A DNA stretch of 61,509 nucleotides, filler included, from Hausera hauseri (Eukaryota), in assembly GCA_046269625.1 (NCBI GenBank). It is 11 parts of 11 records of this genome, joined end to end, with 100 filler letters (N's around TTAATTAATTAA, not from the genome) between each part and the next. Parts side by side here need not be neighbours in the genome. Positions count along the whole stretch, not along the records: positions 17,580 to 30,605 come from JBJURY010002236.1; 10 more parts are not named here. One strand, given 5' to 3'. Shown piece by piece: positions 3,963 through 39,258 of this stretch. A program made the translations under genes and the position numbers. The notes beneath the pieces are model-generated. The model was not told the DNA's origin and ran no database searches. It worked only from the letters and a program-made list of their open reading frames with translations. The stretch's first letter is position 1. Every line of letters starts with the position of its first letter.

Positions 3963-4062
3963 NNNNNNNNNNNNNNNNNNNNNNNNNNNNNNNNNNNNNN
4001 NNNNNNTTAATTAATTAANNNNNNNNNNNNNNNNNNNNNNNNNNNNNNNNNNNNNNNNNNNN
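3963..4062. other. Artificial contig linker (N-run/TTAATTAATTAA/N-run); identical linkers at 9968-10067, 17480-17579, 30606-30705, 36324-36423, 40457-40556, 44787-44886, 49119-49218, 53191-53290, 57422-57521
   Basis: Ten identical 100-nt spacers with stop codons in all six frames. Confidence 0.99.
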
Positions 4063-9387: not shown

Positions 9388-10067
9388 TTCAATAATTGTA
9401 GATCATCTTTTCGACGACATATTTAATACATTATCCAACGGAATAAATTGCGTGATATCAAAATCAAAAGATATAATAAACTGTACTTTAAAAAGAATAT
9501 TTAAAAAATATGTAAAACCTTAATTTCCATTATTGCTGCTTGTGACAGTCGGCTGTCGTTGCCAAGAAGATTTGCTAAACTCCCGATGACTCGTTCAGCG
9601 GCAAAGGCAAGCGTATCACTATAAAAATTTAATCAATACTTTGCACAGAAAGAACGTTAAAACAAATTATAAATTCCCCTTGGCTTAAATGAAACTCAAC
9701 TAATCTGTAAATAATTTTTATGATTCGCGTTGGGATGGCTGAAAATACAAACAAAATATTGTTCGTAATATGGAAAAGATTTGCTTCATTTTTGAAAAAT
9801 TAAATAACGTTATTTTATGAACAAAACCTTTTGAATTAAATAAGTATATGTATGGTTAAGTTAGAGTAAAAAAATTTAAACAAATATTCGTTCAATGCAC
9901 TTTTATTAATCATAAATAGACTTGGAAGTTTTAGATCCAAACATAACCCCCAAAAATATGCGAAAAGNNNNNNNNNNNNNNNNNNNNNNNNNNNNNNNNN
10001 NNNNNNNNNNNTTAATTAATTAANNNNNNNNNNNNNNNNNNNNNNNNNNNNNNNNNNNNNNNNNNNN

Positions 10068-15712: not shown

Positions 15713-17579
15713 TACTTTATTATTTTGTTCTTTATTTTCTTTTTTGTTTCCTAATTCAACGTGTATTTTTTCAACAGTACTAAAGTAATTCCTATCATAA
15801 AATCTGTAAATGTACATTTGATTAATCACATTAACTAAATTTTCTATTAAAGGGCACACTGTTGTTATCATCAGTGCTATTGATGCTAGATATGCTTGAA
15901 ATTCAAAATTTCTTGCTTTTACAACTAAGTCATTCTTAATTGTCATTCCACCATCTTGACAACTCTGAAATTGATAATCCCTCAAAATTTTGCAACTGTG
16001 TTAATTGTTCCTCAACTTTGCAAAATTGTATAATATACACCATATACTTCCCATATAAATACAATTTTCAAGGGTCTAATGATCTTTGTTCTCAGCTGGG
16101 AGGGTGTGAATTTCTGTCATATCGTTTCTATCACGCTTTGCAAGAAGATTTAAAATATCCAAATTTGGTTCATTTTGCTGCAGATTGAACAAATTTATAA
16201 ATAAGTTGAATTTCGAATCCACAAACAATGGTGAAATGTGTCAGATTATTTTGAGACGACCGAAATATGGTTTGTCTGTTGATTAGTTCCACTTTTCTGT
16301 TAAAACCCGCCAAGAAAAATTTATTGCTGGAATGCTGTCTCAAAATTTATGTAACAAATATAATCGTAAATTTAAAAATATTGCATTTTTTGTAAACGTA
16401 ATATAAACATGTAATAATAAAACAAAACTTTAAAAATGCACACATATATCACTGTTATTTTTTTGGTGGGCCAATGTGAGCACCACACCACCCCCTTGCA
16501 AAGTCAGTTTTGCCAGGCGGGACCCAACGTGAGTCGTCTGGTGACCAAAACGTCGGTAGATTTTAACCATGAAGAATAAATACTTTCGGCAGGAATTGTT
16601 CGACTTCTCTCCAGTAGGACGAAGCAATGTTGAAGAAGCTCACACTAGCAACGCTGTATCTTTCGGTACCACCACGAGATGCAATGGACGTAGTTAAAAA
16701 CAGTGCACGGTCCTTTTTTTCCAATTGACTTGCAGATTTTGTGAATAACTATGTAATGAACTCTGGATATAGACCGTTACATGTTCCATAATTCCTCCTT
16801 GGATGAGCTTACAGTGTTTTGATCAAATCACATGGCGATTTCCGACTAGTATGTGCATTGGATCCTTCGATATCCCGACGGATATATTGAAGTAAGTACG
16901 ATGAGAATTGTCTGAACAATCATCGGTTTTTAGCATTTTATTCGGCGGTCAATCGAACATCGAATCGCTATCATCACAATCGGATTCACGAGAATATTTT
17001 GAGGAGAGTAGAAGAAAAATGAGAGTTATTCACAAATAACCTTCCCTACCCACTATTTAATTGAATTGTTGCGTTTAAACAAAAGTCAATTTCTCGATTA
17101 GCTGAATCGTTACGTGGATGAATCCAAAATTACTACTGATCCCGGATTGGGTGAATTCGTGATTATTTATTATTCCCACAAATGTCACATCAAATCAAGG
17201 TCATTTATGCATTATGAACAATGTATTTCAAAAAACAACAATTTTATTATTGTTTTTAAAATGTACTTGGCTGATGGTAATCATTCAGTCGCCATATATA
17301 TTGCGCTGCTCAAAGTTAAGTATTTAATTAAATTAAATGAATTTACAAATATTTTAAGAAACTGTTAAGAAAATGAAAGATAATTTCATTGAAATGAATG
17401 GCTATGAAATAGCTACTTCGGAATATGAAGCACCTGAACTAGTCCAATATCGTGCATACAGAAAATATTTTAAGATTTTNNNNNNNNNNNNNNNNNNNNN
17501 NNNNNNNNNNNNNNNNNNNNNNNTTAATTAATTAANNNNNNNNNNNNNNNNNNNNNNNNNNNNNNNNNNNNNNNNNNNN

Positions 17580-20500
17580 TTCGTCTGTTTGTAAATATTC
17601 AAAATACATTGCAGCGCCGTGAACTCCCATAATTTTCCCAACACAATGTTCGGTGTGTGCCTTTCTTATAGCTTCATCTTTGGTCTGTTCATTTGTGATT
17701 ATTGCTACTATCCGGTTTGTCTCGAGTGGTATAATCCCCACATTTACTAGATATTCTGGTTCGTCCAATATTCTACCTCTGAAATAGAGTCGGTAATTGA
17801 CTCCTTCTTTACCTTCTTTATTTATTATTTGTTGTTTTATGTCTCCAACAGTGGTATACGTAGTACATTCAAACTCCTCGTCGTCTATCCCTTCAGATGA
17901 TATCCTTACTTTTATTTGTGCTTCTGGTTTATTTTTCAATAATTTAGCGTACTCTTTTATCAAGAGTTTAGGCACGGCACTATACACAGTGTTCTCACTG
18001 GATAGTTTAGTCAAGGTTGGAATCAACTTCCTCAATTTTTCTTCACTTATGTTTATTCTCAACATGTTGCTCAGCTCTTTCTCAGTCATTATGGGATCTA
18101 GTAGCATTTGCACATCAAATTTTGTCTTTTGCGTATCAACAGGCGACTCGTGAATGTGTATTGGCGTTCTTGGGTTCTGTTCGGTTAAACCTTGGAGATA
18201 TTCATCCCATTCGTTTTCGTTCTCAATGTCTGGCACTTCCAAATTTGTTAACGCCGCTTGTCCTACTTGGACTCTTTCTCGTAATTTGCTTAATTGTGGT
18301 TGTAGTATTTTCATGACGGACACCCTAAATCCATCTCTGTTTCCGCAGGCTAGTTGTATCAGTTTAATTAGTCGACACGTTTCCTCTGGCTGTAACAAGG
18401 CCTTATCTTGGTAATTGGTCAGTTCCGCGATCCTATCAACTTGCCATTTCTGTACGAATTCTGCTTTATCGCTCAATTCTGTTTCTGTCAAAGAATATTT
18501 ATTTTTATAACTTTCTATTTCCCTCAGCAATTCATTTATTTTCAGCTGTCTTCTTTCAGAACGTAATCGGGTTTCTTTTATCAAACGTATGCGGTCGGTC
18601 AGACTTCTTGCTACTGTTTCATCAATTTCTGCCATTTCGGTTAATAGTAAGATTAATTTCTGGGTTTGATTAAGTATCTCGGCGTCTGGATCTATTGCGT
18701 CCATTAGTCTTCTTATTAATTTTACTTCTTCGCTAGTCAGCTGCAAATCGTTTAAGATTTCCGTTAATTCGGAATGACAAGATAAGTCATAACCTGGTGA
18801 CCATCCGACTGAGTTCTGTATATACTGTAATGTCTGTGCTATGGCAATCCGGTGATCCTTACACACTTCCAATGTTTCTATTTCCTGTATGGAAATTTCT
18901 TTTAGTGGTTTCTGTATCAAGTGCTGTATTCCTTCCCAACGAAGATTTGCTAAATTTCCTTGGAGATCATTTAGCTTATTCCTTTTCTTGTAGAAGTCTT
19001 TTTCTTCTATCATATCGTATATTTCTATCATCGTTGCTTGATCTCGAGCTTGGTTCATGAACCTGAGTTCTCGATATGATTCGAATTTACTTCGTAATTT
19101 CACTTCGTCCTGCATCGTACTGGTATCTAACAACATTTCTTCTAATTGATGTCTCATTATTGGTTCAATTACGGAAAATTCTCTTAACCTTTCTTTTATT
19201 ACTCCTACTATTAGGGGTAACAGATCGGTCCACTTCTGCAGTTGTTTGGTTATTAACGGTTTCGTATATATTATTTCATCTAATGCTTCAAGGGCTTCTC
19301 GTAATTTGTGGTCCGGTCCTCGGACAAATTCTATGATTTGTTTTATATAGTTAAATTCTTCCTTGTATTCTTCTAGCTCAAGCAAACAGGAACGTATTAC
19401 TCTCTGTACTTGTGTATTCTCGGAGTCGATTATGCCGATTCTTAAATCATTAATTTCTGCTCTCATTTCGTTTTCTCTTCTGATGCGTCTATGTAGATCC
19501 GGATATTTATGAGGCTTATCTTTGATTAAATTAAACATTTTTAATAAAAAGAAAATATCAGTTTGTTCTATATTCAGTATTCTTAAATCGACCTCAGTCA
19601 GTTCGTATGCGACTTTATTATGTAGATAAGAAATTATCGCTTTCTGCATCTCAGCCATCAATTCTTCTAAGTTCCGTCGTACTCGCTTTGATTTCGGATT
19701 CGCCTTTAATGTATCTATCAATCGTTGTGCTTGATTAACTTGATCGAGAAACGACTCGTTTTTATTCCACCATATTTTCGTAAAATCGATATTATTTGTG
19801 GTCCATAGTTCCAATTTATCTTGGCAATCTTTTATCATACCTTCCTGTATTTCCAACGATTCGCAAGATATGTCTTCTTCGCCTTTTTGTATACCAGTTC
19901 TAATCTTTTTATATAATTTTTCTATGAATTGTTGTTCTTTTTCGGAGATATCCAACTGCTTGTTCAGTTGTTGTAGTCTTTGTAAGTTTTGGGTTGCTTT
20001 TTGCGGATCGTCCAGAGTATCTGTTATTTTTGCTAGCTCTTGTGCATTTTTCCATGATTTTCTAATTTTTCCAAACTTCGTGGATTTCTCTTCCTTTGAT
20101 TCCTCTTCGCTAGATGGCAATGGACATATTTCATTGATTTTGTCGATATTTACGATACTTGTGGACTCTGGGACTATAATGGGAGTATTTAGCTCTGTCT
20201 CATCTCGTAAGTTGATAGTAAAGGCATCTTCTACTTCTACATCTTTCTTAACCGGAGATCGTGAACGTGTTCTTGACCTTCTCTTAAGAGAGGGGCTTCT
20301 ACCTCTATTCTTGGTTATTTTAAGTACTAACGGTCCGATGAATTCACTCTCGACTTCATCTGCTGTCTTCTCTTTAGTTGGCGTTACAATTTCAGTATCT
20401 GCATCCAAGTCTATACTCGGAGATGCTGTTGATTTTTCTTCTTTTGCTGGTTGATCTCTGCTTTTCTTTCTGGCCATATTAGTACCTCTGGGCGCTATAG

Positions 20501-21771
20501 CCTTTTCGTATTCCGTTTTTGGTTCTCTTAACCCGTGATAAACTTCTAATTGGTACAATTTCTCTTCATATTCCTGTCTGGCCTTAATTACTTGCGGATT
20601 ATTAGATTCACCCATATTTCTTACATATCGTCGTAAATCTTGCATTTCGATAATCATACTTATATCTCCTCGTTTTCCGTAAATCCCTTCTAGATTCTCT
20701 TTTATCATGCTTGTTTTACTGGTCTCGGCAAATGATACACTCCGCGGGTTAGGACATGATCTAGCTATATGTCCTTCTTTACCACACGAGTAACAAATCA
20801 GATTCCCATCGCGTCCGATTCTTTGTCTACCGTCTTCATTTACTGGTGATTTCGGTCTACCAGTATTTTTATTTTGAACTGACTTATCGATTCCATTATT
20901 TCGACTTTCATAATTCCGACTTCCTGTATGTCGATTCTTGTTATACCGGTCATTGCTTCTATCCGGATTATAACTTGTTTTACCATACATGTCTGTACTG
21001 TAACCCGTTTTATTATACATATTTCGATTATCGTTCCTGTTATCATATTTTGTATTACGATTGAAAGTATTTTGAGCTCTATTCTCATATCCTCGATCTC
21101 TATTATTGTCATTAAACCTTTTATTACTTCGGTTCCTATCTCTGTTATCACGGTCATTATTCCGTTCATATCTATCATTCTGTTTGGCATATCTGTCTAA
21201 TGCCATTTCTAAATTCTGAGCTAATTGCAATGCCGTTTCAAAATTATCTGGTCGAGCCAAAATTAGTTGCTTTACTAAATCTCTAGACCATATGCCGTTT
21301 ATTAACTGCGTTATCATCATGACATCTAAATCTAGTGGACTAGCCTTTTCTGCTGCTTCTCGTTCTTCATTTGTTTTTGCTTTTGCTGCATTAGCTATTC
21401 TCAACGTACTCACATAGCTATTAGCAAGTTTCTTAAGTGCGAATGCGAATTGGGAGACCGACTCACCCTTCTGCTGCGTTCTATTTTGGAAGGCCATCAA
21501 TTTCTGTTGAGGCGTAACTGTCGGTAACAATTTCCGATTTAAGGCTCCTACTACCGAAGACCATGACTTCTTTTCGTCATTAGTTAGTTCACTATAGGGA
21601 CAATCGTTTAATCATAACTTCTGGTGCGAGGCTGGCACCTTCTGCGTGCAGTTTATAAGTCCGTAAAAAGTCGTTTAATCCATCTGGATCTCCGTCGTAT
21701 GCGGGTAAGTTTAACGAGTCAAACGTAAATATATCAAGTTTCTGAGCTACTGCTGGGTTATCTGCTGCCAT
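17580..21771 (-). CDS. gag: Extended Gag: capsid-like domain, CCHC knuckle, RS patch, long helical region, ubiquitin-like domain; one frame break near 21595; open at the contig edge
   Basis: ATG at 21771 gives MAADNP..LPAYDGDPDGLNDFLRTY. The frame then shifts to YSELTNDEKKSW..RTQQKGESVSQFAFALKKLA (major-homology-like). CYSCGKEGHIARSC at 20754-20795. UBL at ~17695-17920. Confidence 0.9.
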
Positions 21772-22106
21772 TTTAGTTTTATTTAATTTATCTATTTTAG
21801 TTTTACGAGAAACTTTAAACTCTGTAACTTGATTTAATTCCGTGTCGGATAAATGGTTTTTATCTATCGTCTGATTTTTAGTATAAAGCTTATTACGAGT
21901 TTCTCTACCGTTTGCTAATAAATTTTGATAAGAATTTGATTTATCGGTGTTCGCTTTCAGTTTGACTTATTTATTCCCTCTATCAACTTATAATCCCGAT
22001 TTTTAACTCTCAATCTTCCTATAACAATTACTTGATGTAAGTGGCGCTATTCGCCCGTATGTCGTTAATTGATTTCTCAAAAGTAAAGTCTAGCGAGGCA
22101 CAGACT

Positions 22107-22124
22107 GTCCTGCTAGGGTCGCCA
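22107..22124 (-). promoter_or_regulatory. Primer-binding site, tRNA-Arg-like
   Basis: Minus strand TGGCGACCCTAGCAGGAC lies 4 nt after the LTR-terminal CA. It is complementary to a tRNA 3' end GTCCTGCTAGGGTCGCCA; the Arg assignment is by resemblance to Arg tRNA 3' ends ending GGTCGCCA. Confidence 0.85.
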
Positions 22125-22128
22125 AATA

Positions 22129-22918
22129 TGTTGAGTTAGGGTGGCCCTTATCCGTCCCCACTATAACAATATTAACTTCAATTTATATTTTTGCTTCAAG
22201 AGCAGGTTAGGATTACTCGTTCTCGAGTAATCTGCTTGTGCCTTAGTATTTTAGAATAATTTGTGTCTAAGCAGGTACTGCGTGCACGAAAAACAATTGT
22301 CTTAATTTGAATTCTCTTGTCTTAACTATTTAAGTTTGAGTGAAATTTTAACTTAGGGTAGTCCAAATCAGCTTTAAGAGCCGATGAAGAAAACTATGTG
22401 ATTTTAAAAGAGAATACAATAATGATAACCTTTATTAACACCTTCTCAACAGTACGTATCGAATCACAACCAAAATGAAGTAAGTCAATTTTTTTGTTTT
22501 TTTGAATCTTTTCCGAATTCCGCAATACGAACCTAAGTCGTAATTTGTTATCAAGCTTGTCTAGCAATTTCGATTCTAAGTCGCTAAATTTTCAGCAGGT
22601 CAATGCGATCCTAAGTCGCAAAAATTTTTCTAATTTTGTCTTTTTTAGCTTCTGCTTATATAGTAGCAGCTTAGCCGTAATCATCGATTTATCTAGTTTA
22701 TTTACACAGATAACCGTTTTTTTGGCAATTACAACAGTTTTTCGGCAATTGATGTGACAGTTCCTTTATTTTTATCGCGACTACAATCTTTAAAAATTAT
22801 TTACTGGTGACTTCTGTAGGCGATTGATTATTGTCAATTCACGAATAGAAATTCTAAATATTTACATTATTTACTGGTGATTTCTGTGGGCGATTGATGG
22901 GCGATTGATTATTCTACA
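22129..22918 (-). repeat. Long terminal repeat (790 bp, TGTAG...CAACA)
   Basis: Bounded by PPT and PBS. TATATAAG at ~22655-22662 and AATAAA at 22431-22436 (minus strand). An internal direct repeat of ~35 bp lies at ~22797 and ~22867. Confidence 0.85.
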
Positions 22919-24029
22919 TTTCTCCTCCCTGAGCGGCATCCTCGAAGGAGCCTATTGCGTCAGAAGAGGTGGCGCCAATTGTTCTGGGGTCTCTTAATCG
23001 ATTCAGTCTTTCGTCTAGGTCAGATGGAGATTCTGGGCGTTCTTGGACTACTACAGGGTTTGTTTCTAAACTATAACTGAAATGGGGTCTTATTCTGACA
23101 ACTCGCGTATAGTTTCCGTTCGAATAATATTTAAGTTCCGTAGCTTCAGCTCGACATACTGGACAGGTGGTCTTTCCATTGTCTAGGGTCCATTTTTCGA
23201 GACAGTCTCTGCAATACTTATGTCGGCAATTTTTGTTATCTAGGATTACATATCCTTGTTGTAAGTCGGCCTCGCAAACAGGGCACTCATTTTCCTTTTT
23301 GCCCCAGTCGTCTCTATCCAAGTCCACCTGGATGATTAACTCGATTGGCTCAAATACGAGCCCGTCTTTGTCTTGGTATAGGTAACCATGAATTATCTTT
23401 TGTTTCGGATTAATAGAACTTTTTCTGGGGTCGCAATCAACTTGGATTAGGGTCCAGTCTGTTATAAGATCTTTGTCCAGATCAGGAATAGTTCCTTCCG
23501 TTTTGTATTTCTTATATTGTTTTTTTAGAAGTATTCGAATTTGTTTGTTCACTGGAACTATGATTTTTCCGGTTCTCTTCGACCTGAAGATTGAAGTGAG
23601 ATATGTTCCTATTTTATGATTTTCCCAAACGTAGGTGTTTTCGAACACTTCTCTGGCGGGGGCTAGTTTGATGAAGAAAGTCGCTTCTTTTATTAATTTT
23701 TTGCTATAATATTCGGTTATCACCAGCATCTTGGGAAACTCTTTATCAGTTTTGAAGTGAACATCCTTTTTACTATTTTTCTTTATTAAGGTATTTATCT
23801 CTGTTATTAAGGGATTTTTAAATCCCCTCTTTAATGGTTGGGTACTTTGGGAAGTGCTGGGTTGATCTGATTGGATTTCCGTGCTCTGTCCTCCGTCGAC
23901 TTTTCGTTTTTTGAATATATAGTCATATACAGATACTGTTTCCCTTGTTTTGGATTTCTCCTTAATTCCTGTTTTGTTGATTGATGCTTCCTGTTTTCTT
24001 TCTTTGGTGTGTTTTTCTGGGGCTTCCAT
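22914..24029 (-). CDS. RING-HC (C3HC4) finger protein, probably the C-terminal half of one accessory ORF
   Basis: CPVC...CRHKYCRDC..W..CPVCR at ~23150-23287. The frame is open upstream of the ATG to ~24123. The ORF reads through the PPT and stops 5 nt inside the LTR. Confidence 0.85.
   Translation of the reverse strand: MEAPEKHTKERKQEASINKTGIKEKSKTRETVSVYDYIFKKRKVDGGQSTEIQSDQPSTSQSTQPLKRGFKNPLITEINTLIKKNSKKDVHFKTDKEFPKMLVITEYYSKKLIKEATFFIKLAPAREVFENTYVWENHKIGTYLTSIFRSKRTGKIIVPVNKQIRILLKKQYKKYKTEGTIPDLDKDLITDWTLIQVDCDPRKSSINPKQKIIHGYLYQDKDGLVFEPIELIIQVDLDRDDWGKKENECPVCEADLQQGYVILDNKNCRHKYCRDCLEKWTLDNGKTTCPVCRAEATELKYYSNGNYTRVVRIRPHFSYSLETNPVVVQERPESPSDLDERLNRLRDPRTIGATSSDAIGSFEDAAQGGEM
22919..22931 (-). 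promoter_or_regulatory. Polypurine tract
   Basis: AGGGAGGAGAAA immediately before the LTR-initial TG. Confidence 0.8.
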
Positions 24030-24081
24030 CTTCTCTTGAGGAATTTCGGTTTCTTTACTTCTCGGTGTTCCTTTCTTATTT

Positions 24082-25329
24082 TCAAGTATTTTCCGGCACC
24101 GTGATTTGAAGGCTATGTTGCTCTATCAGCTGAACAGTCCGGAGTGGGGAATATGGTTTTATACCTGTTCTGTGTTTTCTGTTTATTTGTTCTGGTTCTA
24201 TTGAGTTGCATAACTTGTTCATGACATTTGTAGGGGTCCACTCATGTTCCCATTTTAATTTGACATAAATTTGTTGTAGGTATCTAGATCGTTGGCTCGC
24301 CGACAAGAGTCTAGGTATTTTACCTTGATTATCGATCATTGCTTCGATAGTCATTTTGAAGAAGGCTTCTGGCGCGGTGGTTATATTTTTCTCTTGCATT
24401 GTTTTTGCTACCTGTTTTCGTACTACTGGGTGATGAGCTATCTCCCTAAATCCGGCAATGTTTGCCTCGGATATTTCTAGTAGCTCTACCTCGCTTTGTA
24501 CATAGTATCCGGTTAACATACAACCGTATAGGCAGTGCTCCAATTCCGATCGTACTTGGTTGATGTCTCTTCCAGTTAATAGTTGTTCTTTTCTCAACCC
24601 CGTCTTCTCTGCATACGATTCTTGCACGTGTTTTCTGGGGTTAATGATAGTTGAATAAATTTCTGTTCCACTTCTTTCTCTTATAGAAACCTCTATAGGT
24701 ACTCCATATCCATCGTCTCCTCTTCCATAATTTATCGCCAAAATTCTTATATTTCGTCCGTCCTGGACTAATCTATAGGCTTGTTGGTGCTTGTCCTTTT
24801 CTTCTTCGGTTGGGATTTGTGAAAATTGCAATGCTGGCAAACCTAAGTTGCAGCTTTCCTTGCTGGTTATTTCGAACATCAACTTGACAGGTAATGCCGC
24901 TATCCGAAATTCTATTTCATAGTTGATAGATGCTAAACCCTGTCCACTAATTTTGAACGTGCTAAAACGATATTGGCGCCCTTCATTATTTTCCCACGGC
25001 TGGTTCTTGATCCTGTAATAAATCTCTCCATCTGCGAGATGTATAAATAGGTTTTCTACTCGGTTTATCTTATTATGGATTAGCTCTTTTAAATCGTATG
25101 ATTTGGCTTGGTGATTTTCTTTCATTGCATATAATAGGACAATTCGGCTTTCTTCTGTCGTTCCTTTTAAATCGTTTGGGATTTCGGTAACTTTTCGGTA
25201 TTCCAGGTACGTCTTTGCCTGTAATGCGTCGTTGATTCTCCTGTATAATCCTTTGGATTTTGGGATGAGGATGGTTCCATACTCCTGCAGGAAAGCGTCG
25301 ATCCTAGGTCGGCGGTTCGTACTTACCAT
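24082..25329 (-). CDS. Accessory ORF with a REX4/ISG20-like DEDDh exonuclease fold lacking the catalytic acidic residues
   Basis: ILAINYGRG..EVSI..SGTEIYSTIINP..V..Y..KTGLRKEQL..INQVRSELEHCLYGCMLTGYYVQSEVELL..FREIA follows the REX4 pattern ALDCEMVG..RVSIV..G.V.YD.YV.P..V.DYRT..SGI...L..F..V..EV..LL.G.ILVGH....D...L..RDT. Confidence 0.65.
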   Translation of the reverse strand: MVSTNRRPRIDAFLQEYGTILIPKSKGLYRRINDALQAKTYLEYRKVTEIPNDLKGTTEESRIVLLYAMKENHQAKSYDLKELIHNKINRVENLFIHLADGEIYYRIKNQPWENNEGRQYRFSTFKISGQGLASINYEIEFRIAALPVKLMFEITSKESCNLGLPALQFSQIPTEEEKDKHQQAYRLVQDGRNIRILAINYGRGDDGYGVPIEVSIRERSGTEIYSTIINPRKHVQESYAEKTGLRKEQLLTGRDINQVRSELEHCLYGCMLTGYYVQSEVELLEISEANIAGFREIAHHPVVRKQVAKTMQEKNITTAPEAFFKMTIEAMIDNQGKIPRLLSASQRSRYLQQIYVKLKWEHEWTPTNVMNKLCNSIEPEQINRKHRTGIKPYSPLRTVQLIEQHSLQITVPENT

Positions 25330-25475
25330 TCTGAAACAAAATACAAAATAAGGGTTAATCCTAAAACAAAATATTGTTCTAAATTTGAACCAATTCTTTG
25401 TTTGATGGTGGAATAACCCGAGCTGTAGTTGTCAGGTTATTCCATCATTAATTTCATTCTATGGTACCATCACCC

Positions 25476-26880
25476 TTAATTCCCTTTCATTAACTTTATG
25501 GCGCTTAATACAACAGTTTTGGCAATTGATCGAAAAATCGCAATTATCATTATGAGAGCGAACACTGACATAGCAATAACCGATATTAGTGACATTGTTG
25601 TCCATTTAATCGAATTTTCTATTTTGGCGGTAGTTACTATCTCATCAGTCATTTTATCGTCTTTCGGTTGATGCTTTATAGAAATCTCGTTTAAAGTTCG
25701 TGCTACGAATACTACGCTTTGTTTATTCTTTGCTTTTATTTGTAATATATAATTCGTTTTGGGTTTTAATCTAATACATTTAGTCTGATAGCTGCCTTTC
25801 CGTAACTTTACTTTTTGGTTGTTGTATAGTGTTCGGCAGTTTATTTCTACTTCGTATTTGAGAGCTTCTTCTACGTTAAACGTTATCTCTTGTTGCTGTG
25901 CCTGATATTTTACTGGAATCATTTCAATTTTCTCTGATAGTTTCTCTGATAGTGAATCGGTTGTTCGGTGGAGTCCGGTAGGAGCTGGGGAAGTTATATT
26001 TATTTTCGTAATCGTAGTTTTGTTTAGTTTTGACATAGTCCCTTGGAATAAATTTTTCAATAAGTAGCTTCCTAAGAAGATACTTGGCTGATTAATTCTT
26101 GTTTCATACAAGTCTAATCGAATTCTATATCTCTGTGCTGGAGGCGTTTTACAACATCTATCGGGCCTTTCCGTGTTAATCTGACAGTATTGTTGTTTTA
26201 ATGTCGGTTTTCCTTCCTCAAAGAAGTTAACTGTGATTACTCGTGCTTTGATTAGTCGTCCTTTAGTGCTGATTTGAATACATTGATTCTTCCGGTTTTC
26301 TTCTACACTTGCTACGTTTTCTTCTAACATTCGTTTAAGTGGATCCATAGATTGGAATAGGTCTTCTAGCTTTGTATTTAGATAATCTCCATAGTTTCGT
26401 GGTAGTACTAAATATGAATTCAAGCTTATTTCCGCTTGTACTTTATCACAATTCGGTGGATATAATTGATATCGCATGGTATAATAATGTCCATATTTCA
26501 CGTTACAACAAATCGTATCATCTTCTGGCTCGAATCTACATTCGATTTCTTCATTGTTCGATATGTCACAGAGTAGTATCCTGGTTTGCTCTTTTCGTAA
26601 GTCTGGTAATCTAAATCCGACACATGGGGCTTCTGGTGAAAAGTAATCGATTGTTACGGCTCGTAAGAATTTTTCATCTCTTAGATCTATTTTCTTTTCG
26701 GGAAGCTTTTCTGGGGGCTTTAACCCATTTAACCCAATTTTTCTAATTCCGTATACATCACTTAACGAACTTTCATCAATCCACCATTGTGCTTGAGTCT
26801 TGGGCGTTAACACAGCAATTAATGATAAAGCTACTATGATTTGCGCATACGATACTGGTCTGGTGATAATTGATGAGGCC
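25476..26880 (-). other. Env-like segment of Pol: internal signal peptide, three FN3-like modules, C-terminal TM helix
   Basis: Signal YAQIIVALSLIAVLTPKTQA|QWW. Repeats CCNVKYGHYYTMRYQLY..ISLNSYL, CCKTPPAQRYRIRLDLY..IFLGSYL and CIRLKPKTNYILQIKAKN. Sequons NKT and NIT. TM SLISVIAMSVFALIMIIAIF. Confidence 0.7.
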
Positions 26881-29800
26881 TTATTTTTACGTGGTCTCAG
26901 ATTGTACTGTTTGATCGGTTTTATGTCCGTTTTAACTACTCTTTGCACTGACACAACTTCTTCCTTTCCATTTTTATTAACATATACTGTGGTTGGCGTT
27001 GTGCGGAGTACTTCATATGGTCCTCTTCCGGTACGTGTTAATTTTAAAGACGTACCCTTCTTTGCGACTGGATAATGTATATAAACCCATTTTCCTTTTT
27101 CCAGATCGTGAGGCTTGATCTTTTTATCGTATTGTTTCGTAAATTGTTCCTGATATTCTAGTGATAGTGTTTTCGCGACTTCCCAACATTTCTGTAGTCT
27201 CGTTTGCAGAACTTCCGCAAAGTTTTGCTCCAGATCTTCAAGATTCATTTCGTATGGTGTCATGCCTAAATCGGTAGGCAAGATTGCTTCTCGTCCGTAC
27301 ATCATAAAAAACGGTGTAAATCCTGTTGCTGGATGTGGGGTAGTATTAATTGCGAATTGAGTTCCTTCTAAAAATTCATCCCAATCTTTTTGATCCTTTG
27401 CTACTACCGTTGATAATATTCGAATAACTGTTGCATTCATTCGTTCTACCATTCCATTGCATTGAGGGTGATATGCAGTTGTCGTTAAACGTTCGATTTC
27501 AAATATTTTGGTGATCTTCTCAAATAATTCACTTGTAAAGTTTCTCCCTCTATCTGTTAGTATCTGTTCCGGCGGTCCGTATCTGCAAATAATTTTTCTT
27601 ACTACTGCATTGGCTAAAGTTTCTGCTTTTTGATCTATCAGTGGTACTAGTTCAACGAAATGCGTTAATCGGTCTACGCATGTTAGGATATATCTGTTTT
27701 CCTTATGTGTTTTAGGTAAGGGTCCCACTATATCCATTGACATAGCTTGCATTGGCCTGTCTGGCACATTTATAGGTTTTAATTCTGCTACATAGCCTTT
27801 TGATTTCTTTTGTTTGGTGGCACAAACTTCACAAGCTCCTACCCAATTCTTTACGTCAATGTAAATACTTGGCCAATAATATTTATTTAATATCCTTTCT
27901 AGCGTCTTTTTCCAAGACATATGTCCGGCTAAGTATGAATCGTGTTCTGCCATAAGCACTTCGGGTCGCAATCCCTTTGGAATAACTATCAGTCTCCGTC
28001 CTTTTCGTTCGTAGTATAAGACGTTATCTTGGTTTGTCGCGTGATATTTATGTCCGTGTTTTTGTAGGTGCTTTTTCAATTGTCGTCCTTTCTGTAGTTC
28101 ATCGTTTTGTACGAATTCAATAATTTGTTGAATAACTGCATCCTTAGCTTGTTCAGCTGTAATTCTAACTGTTTTGTCCAATATTAGAGTTCTCTGTCGT
28201 TCAACCAGCTGTTCGAGTTGCGGTTTCTTAAATACCGTGATCGCACTGGTTTTTGTTTTTAGTCTTGACAGTGCATCAGCATCCACGTGTTTGCTACCAG
28301 GTTTATACTGGAATTCAATATTATATCTTGAGATCTCTTCAATCCAACGGTTTAATCTACATGTCGGATTATTAGCCCGGCCTTTTAGTGTCGTAACTGC
28401 TTTGTGATCCGTTACTATGATTATCTTTTGTCCATAAACATAGACATTAAAATGTCGTAGCGCTTCTTTTACGGCCAACGTTTCCAATTCTGTAACTGAA
28501 TAATTCTTTTCTGCTTTCTTTAATGAACGTCCTCCGTAAGCTATTGGATGTTCTAATTCTTCGTCTTCGCGTTTTTGAGCTAACTCATACCCGATGCCTT
28601 CTTTGCTTGCATCCGTCTTAATAATAAATGGTAGGTTGAAGTCCGGGTACCTTAAGACTGGTTCGCTAGTTAAAATCCTTTTCATTTCGTCGAATGCCTT
28701 TTGTTCTGCTTCTGTCCATTTCCACTTAATTCCTTTTTTAAGCAATCGATATAGTGGGGCATTAATCTTTGAGTTGTCTGGTACGTAAGTGGCGTAATAT
28801 CCACATAATCCTAACCAGTGTCTCAATTCTTTTTGGTTCTGTGGTTCCATACAGTCCGATATTTTATTTAATAATGATTTATAAGGTTTCGATCCTCCTT
28901 CTCCAACTATGTGTCCAAGATACGACACTGCATTTTGTGCCCATTTACATTTCTTTGGATTTAGCTTTAATCCGGCTTGTTCTAGTCGCATAAGTGTGTC
29001 TTCAATATCTTTTAGATGTTCTTTTTCTGTTCTTGATGCTATCATCACGTCATCTAAATACGCAAATGCATGATCAAGTCCCATGAGCATTTTATTCATC
29101 ATTCTAGTAAAAATAGCTGGTCCTGTGGTGATACCAAAAGGCATAACATTAAATTCATATACACCATCGTGTGTTTTAAATGCCGTTTTATATCGATCTT
29201 CTTCTTCGATTTCCACCTGCCAATATCCCGATTGTAAGTCGAGAGTTGTAAACCATTTTGCTCCTGATAGTCTATCTAAAGCTTCCTTCACTGATGGTAA
29301 GGGAAATGAATCTTTCATCATTAGTGTGTTCAATGCTCGATAGTCTATACAAAACCTATGTTTCGTAGTTCCCTTCTTTTTAACCATAAGTATAGGTGAA
29401 TACCATGATCGGTAACTTGGTCGAATTATGTCGGCCTTTAATATTCGTTCGATTTCTTTAGTTATTTCTGGTCTCAGTGAATGAGGAGGTGGATACCACT
29501 TAGGCATCTTTTGTTCTTCTAGATCGATTTCGTCGTCTGAACCCGGTTTCTTTCTTAATGGTATCGCTAATTTTAAGGCTTTTGCTCTGCCGATGTCTTT
29601 TTCATTTTGTGCTATTATTGAACTGAATTTACATAGTAATTCATAGAATTTGCAGTATGCTTCTGGAGAAAATTTGGTTTCTACATGAGGCGGAAACTCG
29701 GCACACTTATATGGTTTTTCTTCCATTGTTATTGCGGATACTTGATAAGTCTGACCTAACGTAGTGTTAGCATATAACCTCGCTATCGTTGGTGCATTGT

Positions 29801-30605
29801 TCACTAGTCTGAAGGGTATGCGTCCTGTCACTACTCTGCAAAGAATATTACTAAACATGATGTTCGGATCGATATTCCCTTGAGGTTCAAAATATACTGG
29901 CAGATCATCATCTTGTCGAATTTGTGCGAAAATTATCATCTCCGTTCTAGGCGGGATGTCTTCATCCACTGGAATCCATACTTCACCCGATTTCCTTTCT
30001 TTTATTATTTTAGTTCCTTTTATCGGTTCTATCTCAATCAGTTTTCCATTGTGTAGGTCAATTGCCATACCTGGTATCTGTTTCAATATATCACATCCTA
30101 ATACTACATCGTCCGTTAGCTGATCCATTACGGCAAATTCATGTTGAAGGGCTTGGCCCATCATATAAACAGTAGGGGTCCACTTGAATTTCGGTTTCGA
30201 CACTTGTCCAAAAGCTCCTATGCTACCTGGGTCTGAAGATGATGGTGGACACAAATGCTTCCGTAATGTGGTTGGTATTGATTCGTTTTTTACAAATGAT
30301 TTTTCCGATTCTGTATCGATCAAAGCGTATACTTCCCAATCTTCGATATTGATTTTAGCAAAGGGTCTTCCTTCTGCTACTGTTCCGTAGCAATTCGATT
30401 CTACCTTTTTCCGTTTTATCGTAGAGACTCTATATCCGTTTATTGTTACTTCCGGTGGCAATGTAACGTTTTGTCTTAATTGTTCCAATTCTTCACTAGG
30501 GTATAATTCGTTATTTGTTATTTCAGTAACGCGATTATCGAGGAGTGGTTCTTGAGGCGGAACATTTAAGTTCGAGCGCATTCGTGGATTCTCCCAAATT
30601 GTCGT
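25476..30605 (-). CDS. pol: Pol polyprotein (PR, dUTPase-like spacer, RT, RNase H, IN) fused in frame to a type I membrane protein
   Basis: PR: LIDTES and VVLGCD. RT: RFCIDYRALN, LDLQSGYWQ, MPFG, YLDD. RNase H: TDAS, ELETLA, TDHKA, ADALSR. IN: H-x6-H..CEVC, MDIVGP, TDRG, NGMVERMN, GPY, YNLRPR. A ~465-aa extension follows without a stop. Confidence 0.95.
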   Translation of the reverse strand, partial: TTIWENPRMRSNLNVPPQEPLLDNRVTEITNNELYPSEELEQLRQNVTLPPEVTINGYRVSTIKRKKVESNCYGTVAEGRPFAKINIEDWEVYALIDTESEKSFVKNESIPTTLRKHLCPPSSSDPGSIGAFGQVSKPKFKWTPTVYMMGQALQHEFAVMDQLTDDVVLGCDILKQIPGMAIDLHNGKLIEIEPIKGTKIIKERKSGEVWIPVDEDIPPRTEMIIFAQIRQDDDLPVYFEPQGNIDPNIMFSNILCRVVTGRIPFRLVNNAPTIARLYANTTLGQTYQVSAITMEEKPYKCAEFPPHVETKFSPEAYCKFYELLCKFSSIIAQNEKDIGRAKALKLAIPLRKKPGSDDEIDLEEQKMPKWYPPPHSLRPEITKEIERILKADIIRPSYRSWYSPILMVKKKGTTKHRFCIDYRALNTLMMKDSFPLPSVKEALDRLSGAKWFTTLDLQSGYWQVEIEEEDRYKTAFKTHDGVYEFNVMPFGITTGPAIFTRMMNKMLMGLDHAFAYLDDVMIASRTEKEHLKDIEDTLMRLEQAGLKLNPKKCKWAQNAVSYLGHIVGEGGSKPYKSLLNKISDCMEPQNQKELRHWLGLCGYYATYVPDNSKINAPLYRLLKKGIKWKWTEAEQKAFDEMKRILTSEPVLRYPDFNLPFIIKTDASKEGIGYELAQKREDEELEHPIAYGGRSLKKAEKNYSVTELETLAVKEALRHFNVYVYGQKIIIVTDHKAVTTLKGRANNPTCRLNRWIEEISRYNIEFQYKPGSKHVDADALSRLKTKTSAITVFKKPQLEQLVERQRTLILDKTVRITAEQAKDAVIQQIIEFVQNDELQKGRQLKKHLQKHGHKYHATNQDNVLYYERKGRRLIVIPKGLRPEVLMAEHDSYLAGHMSWKKTLERILNKYYWPSIYIDVKNWVGACEVCATKQKKSKGYVAELKPINVPDRPMQAMSMDIVGPLPKTHKENRYILTCVDRLTHFVELVPLIDQKAETLANAVVRKIICRYGPPEQILTDRGRNFTSELFEKITKIFEIERLTTTAYHPQCNGMVERMNATVIRILSTVVAKDQKDWDEFLEGTQFAINTTPHPATGFTPFFMMYGREAILPTDLGMTPYEMNLEDLEQNFAEVLQTRLQKCWEVAKTLSLEYQEQFTKQYDKKIKPHDLEKGKWVYIHYPVAKKGTSLKLTRTGRGPYEVLRTTPTTVYVNKNGKEEVVSVQRVVKTDIKPIKQYNLRPRKNKASSIITRPVSYAQIIVALSLIAVLTPKTQAQWWIDESSLSDVYGIRKIGLNGLKPPEKLPEKKIDLRDEKFLRAVTIDYFSPEAPCVGFRLPDLRKEQTRILLCDISNNEEIECRFEPEDDTICCNVKYGHYYTMRYQLYPPNCDKVQAEISLNSYLVLPRNYGDYLNTKLEDLFQSMDPLKRMLEENVASVEENRKNQCIQISTKGRLIKARVITVNFFEEGKPTLKQQYCQINTERPDRCCKTPPAQRYRIRLDLYETRINQPSIFLGSYLLKNLFQGTMSKLNKTTITKINITSPAPTGLHRTTDSLSEKLSEKIEMIPVKYQAQQQEITFNVEEALKYEVEINCRTLYNNQKVKLRKGSYQTKCIRLKPKTNYILQIKAKNKQSVVFVARTLNEISIKHQPKDDKMTDEIVTTAKIENSIKWTTMSLISVIAMSVFALIMIIAIFRSIAKTVVLSAIKLMKGN

Positions 30606-30705
30606 NNNNNNNNNNNNNNNNNNNNNNNNNNNNNNNNNNNNNNNNNNNNTTAATTAATTAANNNNNNNNNNNNNNNNNNNNNNNNNNNNNNNNNNNNNNN
30701 NNNNN

Positions 30706-33700
30706 AGGAAGAGGGCCAACGAGATCAACATGAACAGACTCGAAACGTGATGTGCAAGGGAAATGATATAGTGGTGGCTTCAGATGTTTGGTGGTTTTAA
30801 ATTTCTGGCAAGCCACGCACTCCTTAACCCACGCTTGCACATCAGAACGCATATTCGGCCATATTACTTGCCGGTGGAGTAAGCGAAAAGTTGCATTAGC
30901 GCCAGGATGGTGCAGTTAATGTACACTGTTAAACGCTTGCCGTTGTAAAGGTGGTGCGAGAATTATTATGGAAATACCTGGTTCGGAAATGTCTAAAGCC
31001 ACTCCGTTAACAGTTGTGTAAGACTTAAAAAAATTAAGCATGTCCTAAGGTGGCTGGTTCTGTTGGAGTTGTACGTGAGAGAAAATTGTTGAAAAATTAA
31101 TAGAACCAACCGCCCTAGATAGAAAATCGGCAACCAAATTATTAACCCCGTTAATATGTTTAAGGTCAAAGTTAAATGTTGACAAATATGATATCTGTCA
31201 TTCTTGGTATGAAGAAGGATGTTTCATAGGCATGATGTTTAGCAAGGACTTGTGATCGGCCTGTATAGTAAAACGGCGAGCGAAAAGTAGGTGGGAGAAA
31301 TGCTTTAAAGAGAGATCTATGACCAATAATTCTCGATCGAACGTTTAATATTGAGTTTCAGGGGATTCTACCCGCATCAGGCTTGGGAAAAGCAAGAATG
31401 TCGACGATCTTAATTCCTTCGCGTAGTTTATCAAACTTATCAACCAGATCAGGTGTCTACTGGATTGGCTAATGTTTTTGCCGCCGCCTAAGTAAGAAAA
31501 TGTTGCGGTATGTTCAAAGCAGTACGGCACATACTTGTGAATGAAGTGCAAAGTTCCCAAAAAGCTCCTCATTTCAGTTGTTGTTAGGGATAGTTGTATA
31601 CTATTGAGAGCTTCAACACGTTCTGGCTGAGGAGAATGACCATTTTCCGAAATTATGTCCGAGAAAGTTAATACGCTTTTGGAAGAAAGGATATTTCGTA
31701 AAATTAATTTGTAAATTATGGTGGTTGAGTCGTTAAAAAATAGAACAAAGGTGTTCCTCATGCTGTTTGGTTGAAGACAAAGCAATTAAGGTATCGTCGA
31801 TATATGGATGCACGAAACTAAAATCGGAAAGGATAGAATCAATGTGACGTTGGAAAGTCAGCGCAGCATTGCGTAAACCAAATGGTATATAAATGTATTC
31901 GTACAGACCCAAAGGTGTCGTAACGTCAGTTTTCTCAATGTCCTCGGGTGCTACAGAAATTTGATGATATGTCTTGGCTAAGTCCATGGTAGAATATACT
32001 GTAGTGAAATTAAGCCGGTACAGGATATCCTAAATTAATGGTAAAGGGTATGCGTCCGTAACAGTCAAAGTGTTTAGTTGACGGTAATCACCACAAGATC
32101 GGAAGGATCCATCCTTTTTTGGACAACGTGTAAAAGCGAAGACCACGGCGATTTAGATCTGCGTACAATACCGAAGCGTTCAAGGTTTAGAAATTTTGCT
32201 TCGACAGCTTACTTACGATGAGGTGACAATGGACGTACCTTTTGAAAAATAGGTCGTTGATGTTGTTTATGATGTGATAAAAAGTGCTGTTTGTAAGTGA
32301 AAAGGTTCGGTCCTTCTGAATTAAGTGGTGGCATGAAGTGTGTATGTATTGCCGTAGACTTGCACGCAATTGCGAGAAATTGGGTGATGTTGATTGTGTA
32401 GAGTCAATATGTGCAGAGACGAGTGATGTTTGCGAATTATTAAAATAAAATGGAATTTGATGTAGGGTAGTAGTATTAAAATAGTGTTTAAAGAGGTAAT
32501 TTTGTCTAGTGAATGTACTGAACCAACGGAATCGTAGTTGTCAAAACCAAATCTCAACTAAATATCGATATTATCATTAAAAATTTACGAAATGAAAAAT
32601 GCTCGTTGAAGAGATTTGGATTACTTACAGGATTTTTGAGTATAGGCTTCCGCGGAAAGATCGTTTGCACCTTAGCGGATATACAATTTATTCGGTCGGT
32701 AAGATATCCAGTAGTGTTACGTTTCAAACATTTTTGTTTGCAATCAACTAAAAGATATAGTAAGATAAAAAATCCGAACCTAGGACTGCTGCGCGGACAT
32801 TAGCGACGGTAAACGTCCAATGAAACTTTGACTGAAAGTTTGGTAAGGTGAACGACAATTTAGATGTACTCGAAAGGTCTAGAGGTTCTCCTGAAGCCGT
32901 AAATAACGATTTAGCTTTGAATGGTGAATTTTGTAGAGGGAAAGTGAGTGGTAGCAAAGAAACCGCAGCGCCTGTGTCGATAAGGAAATCTATGGGTTGA
33001 GCTGTTGGTGTGGTTATCGAAGCCTTTATTGTAAAGATTGCAAAAAAAGTGTGTCGGCAGGTAGTATTAGATTAGGTGCCTTTGCCAGACTCTGCTGTGA
33101 GTACTGGCAGCGAAATTAGTTTTTTGGATTGGTGACATTAACTGACTATTACTAGGGGAAATAGAACGTCTGTCCATAGTATGGTTAGCGTTATTCTTAT
33201 AGTTGCAGCCTGAAAGACATTTATGAGCGTGAAATCCAAATTTCGCATGGTAGATGCAAACAATCTTGTCTGAATATAAATTTGGAGTGTAATATCTACA
33301 CCATAAACAGCATTTCTTAACTTTATTGTGAAATTTGCTATGACAATAGCACACAAAAGATCATGTAGGCGATGGTGACCTGTTTTTGGAAACAGAACAA
33401 GTACGATTATAAATAGAAATACTTCGTCGTGGTAATGAAAGATTGTTCAACCTATTATTAATGTTATTTATTGTCTGTTGTAATGCTAAATTTTCAGCGC
33501 GTAATTGACTCAACTGTTGCTCTATTGTTGTGTTGAGTTGATTGTCGCTTGTTGTGACCGCTGCTGATACAATTGGTTGGGAATTCAATTGTAGCACTTC
33601 ATATGCTTTATCAGCCAATTCCGCCAATTTATCCAACTTCGTAGATTCCTCAACAACGGTAATGAGTGCCCTAATTTGTATAGGCAACGCGTTTAAGAAA

Positions 33701-34949: not shown

Positions 34950-36250
34950 ATGATCTTGTCCGAGAAGAAATCTTTGAAGTAGGAATCGATGATTCCGATA
35001 GCGTTGTTGGAAATATGTTCTTTGAGATTGTAGTTTCTTTTGAATGGGGAACAGGACTAGGCCTTGTAGAAGGGTATATAATAGAAAACAACGTTGATTT
35101 TGTAGTTATCATGGTACTAATGGGCGACTTGGGTACCAATGATGTTGAATTCACGATGGGACTGATTGTAACAGATGATGGATTTGTATTGGTTAAAGTC
35201 TTTAGATGATTCAGTTAGATGCGTCGTACTTGATTAACGGGAGTGTCTAATCTTATGCACGGTAGCCCATTTATAACAAAGAAATTATGGAATGTTTTTT
35301 TCCTTCATTAGTAAGACTAAATCCAGTAATTTGAATGCTGACAGATACATATTGAGTCTCTTGTTCATTTCCGAATATCTACAGCTGCTCTGATTACTGG
35401 ATAGATATGTAATTAAACTTTGACACACTGGTAACAATGCTGGAATATATATATGCCACAATGATGTAAGGTTTTGCGGTGACATGCGGAACAAAATGAC
35501 TCGAAAGCACCAAAACAACTGCGTTCGAATTTGAGGAATTACGCCCAAACGAAAGGAGTCGCTGAGCCTTTTTTGTATTTCGGGCATTGACTTGACATGT
35601 TGATCGGTTTCACTGCTCAAAATAATATAGGCCACTTTCTTCAAACAAACAGCAGCCATATCATATTCAGCTTCTTTGAAAATATAAATACTCAAACCTC
35701 CACCTTGGTTAACGGTTAATTTTGTGAAAGCTTCTTTAAATGTGCTTTTGTCTTGAGTCATGAGATTATCAATTATTGATTTCCATGATTTTAAGGATTC
35801 GAGATCAAACTGGAAAAAGTAGTACTCAAAAAGTAGATCAAATAAATCTTTTCTCCGTGTTTTTCTGGTATGTTGATAACTACTTAATGAAGCCATAAGC
35901 TGACTAGCGGCACGTAAGTTAAGCAAATTTGCTTGACTTCTGACTTTGAGATATGGAAGAATATTTGGCAAAATAATGCTACTCAGAAACGGTTGAACTC
36001 TTTCTTTTTCATCACTTTTATAAATCACATCAAGAATGGGAGCTAAATACAGTGTCAAAAGTCGAATTGCTTGAACAGTAAGTATTCTGGATGACAGAGT
36101 AAGTCGAACATTAACTGCATCCATTTTGGTAGAGTTTTCAGAATACTGTGGTAAACTTTGCATAGATCTTGATCTTCGAAAATTAATACCAGCTGCTGGA
36201 ACCAGATTGACTAGTTGGGGAATCCGGTCGAACTTCAACGGGAGACGTAT
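34950..36250 (-). pseudogene. DOP1: Dopey (DOP1/pad-1) C-terminal region, probably a decayed duplicate
   Basis: SDEKERV, LPYLK, QLMASLSSYQHTRK, W..IIDNLMTQDKSTF, LKKVAY..DQ, FRVILFRMSPQNLTSLW. TAA at 35285 interrupts IP*FLCYKWA (consensus LPQFQMYRWAF). The conserved W of TRRAW is R. Confidence 0.8.
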
Positions 36251-36423
36251 AGGGGTTGTATATAATGTATATAATAAAATTATATATAATGTATATATGA
36301 ATGTATGTGTGTTCATGTTGATTNNNNNNNNNNNNNNNNNNNNNNNNNNNNNNNNNNNNNNNNNNNNTTAATTAATTAANNNNNNNNNNNNNNNNNNNNN
36401 NNNNNNNNNNNNNNNNNNNNNNN

Positions 36424-39059: not shown

Positions 39060-39245
39060 ACATATACGGTTAGATCCGTTAAAATATTGATTCAATGAAA
39101 TGCTTCGTAGAGACGTGGTTTGTGTCTGGCAACAATGTCACTGGTGTATAGGGAAAGTTAAGTTCCGTTAGTGCAACCTCCCATTGTCCAGCAGATAAAT
39201 CCAAAGGATTGTTCCAATCTACAACGTATTCACTAGCCTTGCTTC
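39060..39245 (-). pseudogene. Second, short penton-like N-terminal copy
   Basis: KASEYVVDWNNPLDLSAGQWEVALTELNFPY; the DNA closely resembles ~38645-38740. Confidence 0.7.
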
Positions 39246-39258
39246 GTAAAGAATTTGT

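Follow-up and report, generated by a model that had tools for sequence, protein, structure and literature searches.

A Ty3/Gypsy element of Hausera hauseri with a membrane protein behind integrase and a 3' gene for a pseudo-exonuclease and a RING

Organization of the element

The window analyzed here is a 61,509-nucleotide (nt) stretch of DNA from Hausera hauseri (assembly GCA_046269625.1), in which 11 contigs are joined by artificial 100-nt linkers, so that features on opposite sides of a linker are not true neighbors. Exactly one of these contigs (JBJURY010002236.1, 13,026 bp, positions 17580-30605) is taken up between its linkers by a permuted Ty3/Gypsy long terminal repeat (LTR) retrotransposon on the minus strand, as read from Pfam domains and the map of open reading frames (ORFs). 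Along that strand, Pol is followed by a membrane protein, an ORF at 24082-25329, a RING ORF, a polypurine tract (PPT), one LTR, a primer-binding site (PBS) and Gag. The order protease, reverse transcriptase (RT), RNase H and integrase, an LTR with TG...CA ends with a PBS behind it and a PPT before it, and a Gag with a CCHC knuckle all place the element within Ty3/Gypsy, and we regard this anatomy with high confidence. The cargo, by which we mean the Gag extension, the membrane protein and the two 3' ORFs, belongs to the element.

The LTR (22129-22918, -) measures 790 bp and ends in TG...CA. Inspection of motifs places the PPT at 22919-22930 (-), where it doubles as codons for the last residues of the RING ORF, and the PBS at 22107-22124 (-), starting with TGG 4 nt after the LTR and resembling what we take to be tRNA-Arg primed sites. 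The original prediction had described two LTRs and a length of ~13.8 kb. No second LTR-length repeat was found in the window and no target-site duplication is visible, the one LTR lies mid-contig, and the 13.8 kb corresponds to the contig plus an inferred second LTR. A circular contig was also rejected, given no end overlap of 4-39 nt and, in the 15 of 71 joints listed, none that connects one contig end to the other. The permuted single-LTR contig probably reflects either many copies of an LTR element collapsed into one during assembly or a junction of tandem copies. Gag and Pol each run open into opposite contig ends and do not overlap, with the Gag-Pol junction outside the contig. An Rfam search returned 0 matches at E<=0.1. 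The contig copy is probably dead: Gag is split between two frames near 21,600, no canonical catalytic motif is present in the protease, and the exonuclease-like and RING ORFs, which overlap by 41 nt, occupy different frames.

Pol occupies one open frame (25476-30605, -) with RVP, RVT_1, RT_RNaseH, Integrase_H2C2 and rve in Ty3/Gypsy order by Pfam. The aspartic protease domain at 30075-30374 (-) matches RVP at E 0.001, and the canonical catalytic motif is absent from this copy. Between protease and RT, a weak dUTPase-like spacer (29736-30023, -) has no Pfam match of its own and was recognized by alignment to the dUTPase-like region of a related Gypsy locus, L001 (itself Pfam dUTPase at E 9e-4), with 1 of 2000 shuffles equally good. 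RT (YxDD, residue 516), RNase H and integrase (HHCC, D,D35E and GPY motif) extend over 26866-29384 (-) with catalytic motifs present. Their best match in the Protein Data Bank (PDB) is Ty3 Gag-Pol (E 3.5e-111 and 2e-84), followed by a polyprotein at 2e-60, presumably of caulimovirus type, and by retroviral RTs at 1e-32 or weaker. In an RT tree of 17 sequences, with no named reference clades included, the element fell in no starred set, and the nearest sequence shares 49% identity. Pol found no match among viral contigs, 11 matches among longer proteins, none of them close (29-38%), and 12 loci at 27-42% among metagenome contigs, where the cargo proteins had no match. L001 (4862-6610), L004 (6660-8106), L008, L010 and L012 are Gypsy elements with about 40% Pol identity; they feature a chromodomain (in L004) as well as an env-like ORF that is separate, at least 580 amino acids (aa) long, signal-like at its start and without a Pfam match. 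Two giant retroelement polyproteins, P0032 (3264 aa) and P0033 (4765 aa), are not close to the window element; by Pfam, one carries DNA_pol_A_exo1 inside Pol and the other a DNA methylase and PhoH.

Hydropathy indicates that the Pol frame continues beyond integrase into a membrane protein (25476-26865, -) of about 440 aa, which consists of a hydrophobic signal-like stretch (residues about 1250-1268), three domains termed D1, D2 and D3, a C-terminal transmembrane (TM) segment (residues 1668-1703) and a short tail. Its ectodomain measures about 400 aa, the protein holds 12 cysteines, and no furin-type R-x-K/R-R motif was found in it. D1 (26376-26654) and D2 (26031-26300) are two related Cys-containing domains (0 of 2000 shuffles equally good). 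D3 (25656-25928) is weakly Ig/FN3-like (fn3 E 0.066, third domain only) and not detectably related to D1 or D2, and for this reason a set of three FN3 repeats is not established. The in-frame fusion of Pol to a signal-peptide/FN3-like/TM protein stands as originally described, with its FN3-like label only weakly supported. Sequence searches of Pfam and the PDB gave no match to an F-type, gB-type or other envelope or to any fusogen, and tblastn gave none to the env-like ORFs of related Gypsy loci. The protein appears to fit neither an F nor a gB envelope; it may consist of FN3-like repeats or be a class II fusogen.

The Gag core (20748-21771, -) comprises a capsid-like region, an N/R/D-rich stretch and a CCHC zinc knuckle (20748-20795). 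It is followed by an extension of about 940 aa (17919-20747, -), an acidic/basic linker and about 670 aa rich in L/E/I/K, for which we found no meaningful Pfam match, no usable match in Atlas (a language-model search) and no internal repeat. At 17694-17918 (-), in an ORF that stays open to the contig end, lies a ubiquitin-like domain. Its presence in the Gag frame had been predicted; it does share the frame of the CCHC knuckle, while the Pfam ubiquitin matches are weak, at E 6e-4 for the whole protein and 4e-5 for the sub-region, both below the curated cut-off. At E<=10 the Gag extension has five PDB matches, and every one is a ubiquitin-like protein. Since the domain has no di-glycine end it is not conjugable, and it is likely an interaction module.

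The 3' gene, its relatives and its conservation

Pfam assigns no domain to the ORF at 24082-25329 (-), whose product we call P0003. Profile matches and structure comparison identify its C-terminal part together with the tail to the stop (24082-24774, -) as a DEDDh pseudo-exonuclease of the ISG20/ISG20L2/REX4 type. A profile of 13 family members matches ISG20L2 at 7e-26, ISG20 at 2e-16 and SDN1 at 1.5e-14, and the exonuclease part of an AlphaFold2 model of P0003 superposes on ISG20 with a VIA Z of 18.7 and a root-mean-square deviation (rmsd) of 2.4 over 158 residues. Eight of the 13 family rows keep all five DEDDh catalytic positions. P0003 keeps one of the five as an acidic residue, its relative P0005 keeps none, and both ExoI residues are missing from the fragment P0006. 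The dead exonuclease of the original prediction is thus borne out, with the structure check adding both the predicted ISG20-type fold and a second domain that had been missed. A tree of 17 exonuclease domains (P0006 omitted as a fragment) separates the REX4-like rows from the 12 family rows, which group as a single clade (100/99) and have the dead forms at two places among them. Given that catalytic sites are mostly intact across this clade, the dead forms are likely secondary.

The second domain is the N-terminal half of P0003 (24859-25329, -), predicted to adopt a double-stranded beta-helix of the 2-oxoglutarate (2OG) oxygenase/AlkB-like type without the HxD/E...H triad. The underlying AlphaFold2 model has a mean predicted local distance difference test (pLDDT) score of 69.7; a single-sequence model at 33.7 was discarded. 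For the N-terminal 156 residues, VIA returns Ofd2 (Z 10.3), ALKBH6 (9.6), ALKBH1 (9.4), ALKBH5 (9.2) and FTO (8.5), as well as prolyl hydroxylases, with seven 2OG enzymes among the best 50 matches listed (rmsd 3.3-6.2 over 132-150 residues). Foldseek likewise returns Ofd2 (E 1.7e-4) and ALKBH7 (4e-4), within a range of 2e-4 to 1e-3. HxD/E is absent from this domain in 11 of 13 family rows, and its two occurrences fall in different columns. When a profile of the domain is built from just the eight active members, it picks out P0003 (E 4e-10) from the proteins compared. We assign the predicted AlkB-like 2OG fold with moderate confidence.

The RING ORF (22914-24122, -) was parsed by Pfam, PDB matches and alignment into a basic low-complexity linker, a conserved domain, a motif resembling a SUMO-interacting motif (SIM) and a C3HC4 RING. 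The RING itself (23151-23285) scores above the Pfam cut-off, and its best PDB match is RNF4 (E 1.4e-6). Inspection of the window ORF and of P0005 reveals that all eight zinc ligands are kept in both, as are the tryptophan of the helix and the arginine that follows the last cysteine, and that both have a SIM-like motif ahead of the RING. The tryptophan and the arginine serve E2 binding in RING proteins. The RING is likely a ubiquitin ligase. As originally described, the last codons of the ORF cross the PPT and the stop falls within the first bases of the LTR. The domain before the RING (23290-23800, -) is well conserved relative to P0005 and has no Pfam match; it is a candidate substrate-binding module.

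A HMMER search with P0003 among 1.84 billion representatives gave 14 matches, of which P0005 was the best. P0005, known here as a protein, is a single 870-aa chain from one contig of 16.2 kb, and it contains both the exonuclease-like region of P0003 (43% identity) and the RING ORF (42% over 394 columns). Its C-terminus is the same peptide that the window encodes across the PPT. A fused chain with this same end indicates that the ancestral product was probably one protein whose end was tied to the PPT. The dead exonuclease and the RING had been described as one gene, which holds for P0005 and not for the window, where they form two overlapping frames. No slippery heptamer for a programmed frameshift was found at the overlap. 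Word-index searches with P0003 and P0002 yielded no homologs, and there was no match for P0003 in metagenome and viral contigs, for P0005 in phages and prokaryote genomes, or for P0009 in viral contigs.

The remaining matches bring out an unnamed family, the likely source of the dead form, in which eight members (P0007-P0011, P0013, P0015 and P0017) combine an intact DEDDh exonuclease with an N-terminal domain of the same AlkB-like kind, where IPNxLK, H and G are conserved. Several of these active genes lie on contigs of 14-30 kb. P0012 and P0014 are additional dead members, and P0016 (804 aa) strings several RNase_T/DEDDh domains in tandem within one protein.

Between Pol and P0003, folding and a site scan outline a cis element (25326-25470, -) with a stem-loop upstream of the cargo ATG (fold z -3.1), an acceptor-like site and a donor-like hexamer. 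The acceptor-like site at 25331, directly before the ATG, is the best of 431 YAG sites on the sense strand, and the hexamer at 25326 is the sole perfect donor-like hexamer of that strand. Contigs of the runs X1 and X2 are far denser at this element than over the flanking ORFs, as they also are at the PBS and PPT. From these signals we infer a putative spliced subgenomic RNA that would begin at the acceptor-like site.

In each of the two runs, X1 and X2, contigs that are 80-99% identical to the element cover all 30 of its bins, with no single piece listed spanning the whole. X2 was considered as a second species and not counted as independent, its pieces being near-identical, its depth low and its profile the same as that of X1. 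An X1 contig, 1521 nt long and about 87% identical, runs from the end of integrase into the TM region and shows two length differences, each a multiple of three; in it the membrane protein continues in the Pol frame, as in the window copy, where no stop lies between the two parts. A near-identical X1 contig crosses the exonuclease/RING overlap gap-free. The two-frame state is therefore not an error of contig assembly alone, with the limit that X1 may be the same source. The content of A on the sense strand is 0.38-0.42 in all parts, cargo included.

Substitutions were taken from 80 listed rows (40 each of about 1500 and 620), of which 70 remained after four non-coding rows were dropped and duplicates merged. 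Among the differences listed, 31 of 51 in the cargo are synonymous against 13.9 expected (P 3e-7), including 6 of 11 in the Gag extension, 9 of 11 in the exonuclease ORF and 9 of 15 in the membrane protein; the Gag core has 5 of 7. Diverged contigs that carry the cargo, the synonymous excess, the A-rich make-up and a relative ending in the peptide that the window encodes across its PPT support the cargo's place inside the element.

Possible role of the cargo

We tentatively propose, at a little under even confidence, that the 3' protein is an RNA-binding E3 ligase directed against host silencing proteins. The spliced RNA from the acceptor-like site would express the accessory protein, and the two dead folds would bind RNA, docking the protein either to RNA of the element or to silencing complexes made of RNA and protein. 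There the RING, with the SIM-like motif ahead of it, could ubiquitylate host silencing or RNA-decay factors. The membrane protein would likely be cut from the Pol polyprotein by signal peptidase and likely serve cell-to-cell passage or adhesion. Several observations count for the ligase reading: P0005 has the exonuclease-like part and the RING in one chain, both relatives keep the RING yet have a ruined nuclease site, the dead forms are likely secondary, the cargo shows a synonymous excess, the acceptor-like site stands at the cargo ATG, and PML offers a cellular example of a pseudo-exonuclease that binds RNA. To our knowledge, counter-measures encoded by animal transposons are barely known, though host silencing is well mapped; the predicted protein, with its RING ligase linked to dead forms of two RNA-enzyme folds, would be a concrete soluble candidate for one.

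Several points weigh against this proposal. The anti-silencing role is read from sequence and structural models, and a RING joined to an RNA-binding protein is equally compatible with export of the element's own RNA or release of its particles. The AlkB-like assignment comes from a model with a pLDDT of 69.7 and a Z of about 10, without sequence-level support, and the SIM-like motif was recognized just by its match to a short pattern. Only P0005 shows the fused protein, the window copy and the near-identical X1 contig having two frames. Among the differences listed, the RING ORF taken by itself has 7 of 14 synonymous (P 0.1, not significant), and the Pol core, used as a control, has 4 of 12 (P 0.52) and hence no excess, probably because the listed rows are mostly changes private to the contig copy. 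With a flat control and rows that are not independent, several coming from one contig, the synonymous test is noisy and amounts to support, not proof.

The strongest alternative, which we consider possible though less probable than an attack on silencing, is that the cargo acts within the life cycle of the element itself. In such a scheme the dead folds would handle export, protection or packaging of genomic RNA, and the RING would ubiquitylate Gag or the membrane protein for assembly or release. The same anatomy and conservation speak for it, candidate substrates are present within the element (Gag with its ubiquitin-like domain, and the membrane protein joined to Pol), and the conserved hairpin with its splice-like signals suggests complex RNA handling. 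In contrast, most Gypsy elements manage to replicate with no protein of this kind, as illustrated by the 12 related loci with no cargo match, and RNF4 as the best solved RING match, along with the SIM-like motif, leans weakly toward host targets marked by SUMO.

A second alternative concerns the membrane protein and is compatible with the anti-silencing proposal: it could be a true envelope, a diverged class II fusogen, which would make the element infectious and retrovirus-like. We consider this unlikely. An Atlas search with the membrane protein placed it among class II fusogens in 10 of the 10 neighbors listed (phlebovirus Gc-like, EFF-AFF, alphavirus E1, flavivirus E and HAP2; scores 0.86-0.93, with about 200 of 256 features shared at the top score of 0.93), a lead within chance range, given that shuffled proteins score as high as 0.9 in 4-10 cases out of 100 and yield a single clan throughout in a third, and that the score is not calibrated for protein parts. 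An ectodomain of about 400 aa, 12 cysteines and an Ig-like domain before stem and TM segment, as found here, are typical of class II fusogens. Against this stand the lack of any fusogen among the Pfam and PDB sequence matches and the tandem-repeat look of D1 and D2, which fits repeated FN3/Ig domains better. Prediction of a three-copy ectodomain complex scored 0.00 and carries no weight either way.

Combining the boldest version of each part would yield an undescribed lineage of complex, infectious invertebrate Ty3/Gypsy viruses with a class II-type envelope behind integrase and a spliced gene in which two host RNA enzymes, AlkB-like and ISG20-like, have become dead RNA sensors wired to a SUMO-targeted ligase that destroys silencing proteins. 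This composite seems distinctly improbable; if true, it would represent counter-defense of the ICP0 or Vif kind in a retrotransposon and a third kind of envelope for Ty3/Gypsy. Least probable is a cargo of passengers or an assembly chimera, with pieces of host genes decaying neutrally beside a Gypsy pol, an idea that draws on the permuted one-LTR contig, the fragmented assembly, the several lesions and the lack of a listed X1 or X2 piece spanning all, and that is largely refuted by the uniform A-rich make-up, ORFs without introns, full coverage by contigs at 80-99% with one bridging integrase and TM segment in frame, a 42-43% relative keeping domain order and PPT-encoded end, and the synonymous excess.

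Other contigs of the window and known systems

The linkers of the window, each made of 44 N, 12 bases with stops and 44 N, lie at 3963-4062, 9968-10067, 17480-17579, 30606-30705, 36324-36423, 40457-40556, 44787-44886, 49119-49218, 53191-53290 and 57422-57521. Among the other contigs, 1811-3958 (-) encodes an uninterrupted 715-aa stretch of a DNAH9/17-like dynein (1045 bits against DNAH17/DNAH9, 730 or less against algal and ciliate chains), and a tandem array of 30 copies of a 14-bp unit follows at 4063-4488. The dynein scores make an animal with motile cilia the most likely host, provided that the contigs come from one source. A piece of a host gene at 35288-36319 (-) encodes a DOP1 C-terminal domain. 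Fragments of other degraded Gypsy-like pol genes were found at 30706-32540 (-), 39199-39588 (-) and 42056-44780 (+). Three contigs within 45000-57400 have common repeats of 75-87% identity and Endonuclease_7 domains and may be Polinton-type polymerase regions.

In Burro/GYPSM1, a giant planarian Gypsy element, the long Gag includes Ubi/SUMO-like, MATH and BIR domains, and interference with the host has already been proposed for this element (PMC6431247). The window element resembles Burro in a CCHC Gag core with a long extension bearing a Ubi/SUMO-like domain, in a dUTPase-like spacer between protease and RT, and in cargo from the ubiquitin pathway. Burro exceeds 30 kb, carries MATH, BIR, BCL2 and ankyrin domains and has an F-like env between gag and pol (PMC6431247). 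Unlike it, the window element measures about 13-14 kb, has its membrane protein after integrase and ends in an AlkB-like/pseudo-exonuclease/RING gene; Pfam found no MATH, BIR, BCL2 or ankyrin domain in it, with Gag covered as far as it lies in the contig and the Gag-Pol junction outside.

The Vesta and Juno LTR elements of bdelloid rotifers have a DEDDy exonuclease ORF3 downstream of pol with intact motifs, RNase D-like and with no significant departure from neutrality reported (PMC5408684). A DEDD-family exonuclease ORF after pol is common to both systems, and TM-containing ORF3s of uncharacterized type also occur in the rotifer group. In contrast, the exonuclease of the window element is DEDDh/ISG20-like and catalytically dead, with an AlkB-like fold before it and a RING linked to it. 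Gypsy elements of Phalaenopsis orchids carry an active AlkB 2-ODD ORF, near plant demethylases, that has been read as a counter to RNA-level surveillance (PMC9289625). An accessory ORF with a 2OG-oxygenase fold in a Gypsy element is thus shared, whereas the predicted fold in the window is only structurally recognizable, has no metal triad, is fused and belongs to an animal host.

In errantiviruses, env is a separate ORF after pol. Their envelopes are of F type or of herpes simplex virus gB type, and the main text uses none of the words RING, ubiquitin and exonuclease (PMC13524379). Like them, the window element has a Ty3/Gypsy pol followed by a protein with signal peptide, ectodomain and TM segment; unlike them, it has no F or gB match and no furin motif, and its membrane protein is in frame with integrase. 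MDG1 elements carry a small FAST-like protein instead of an envelope (PMC11952523). Kuafuorterviruses/Troyka have the RT motif IADD, VADD or LADD in place of YxDD (PMC11673190; PMC12440569). The YxDD of the window element rules out that assignment.

PML has a RING, and poxvirus p28 and herpesvirus ICP0 are viral RING ligases, a kind of enzyme that removes host restriction factors. The PXL of PML isoform 1 is an RNA-binding pseudo-exonuclease (PMC13659232). What PML PXL, p28 and ICP0 share with the window protein is a principle, a nucleic-acid-binding or dead-nuclease module together with a RING, and the likeness is one of analogy only.

The original prediction knew of no comparable combination, which overstates the case. 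The AlkB-like/pseudo-exonuclease/RING fusion and the combination as a whole were not found in print, a search that did not cover Repbase, GyDB and supplements, which may list the family. Any surprise is tempered by Gypsy elements being already known to collect ubiquitin, exonuclease and AlkB cargo, each theme having a precedent in Burro, the rotifer elements or the orchid elements.

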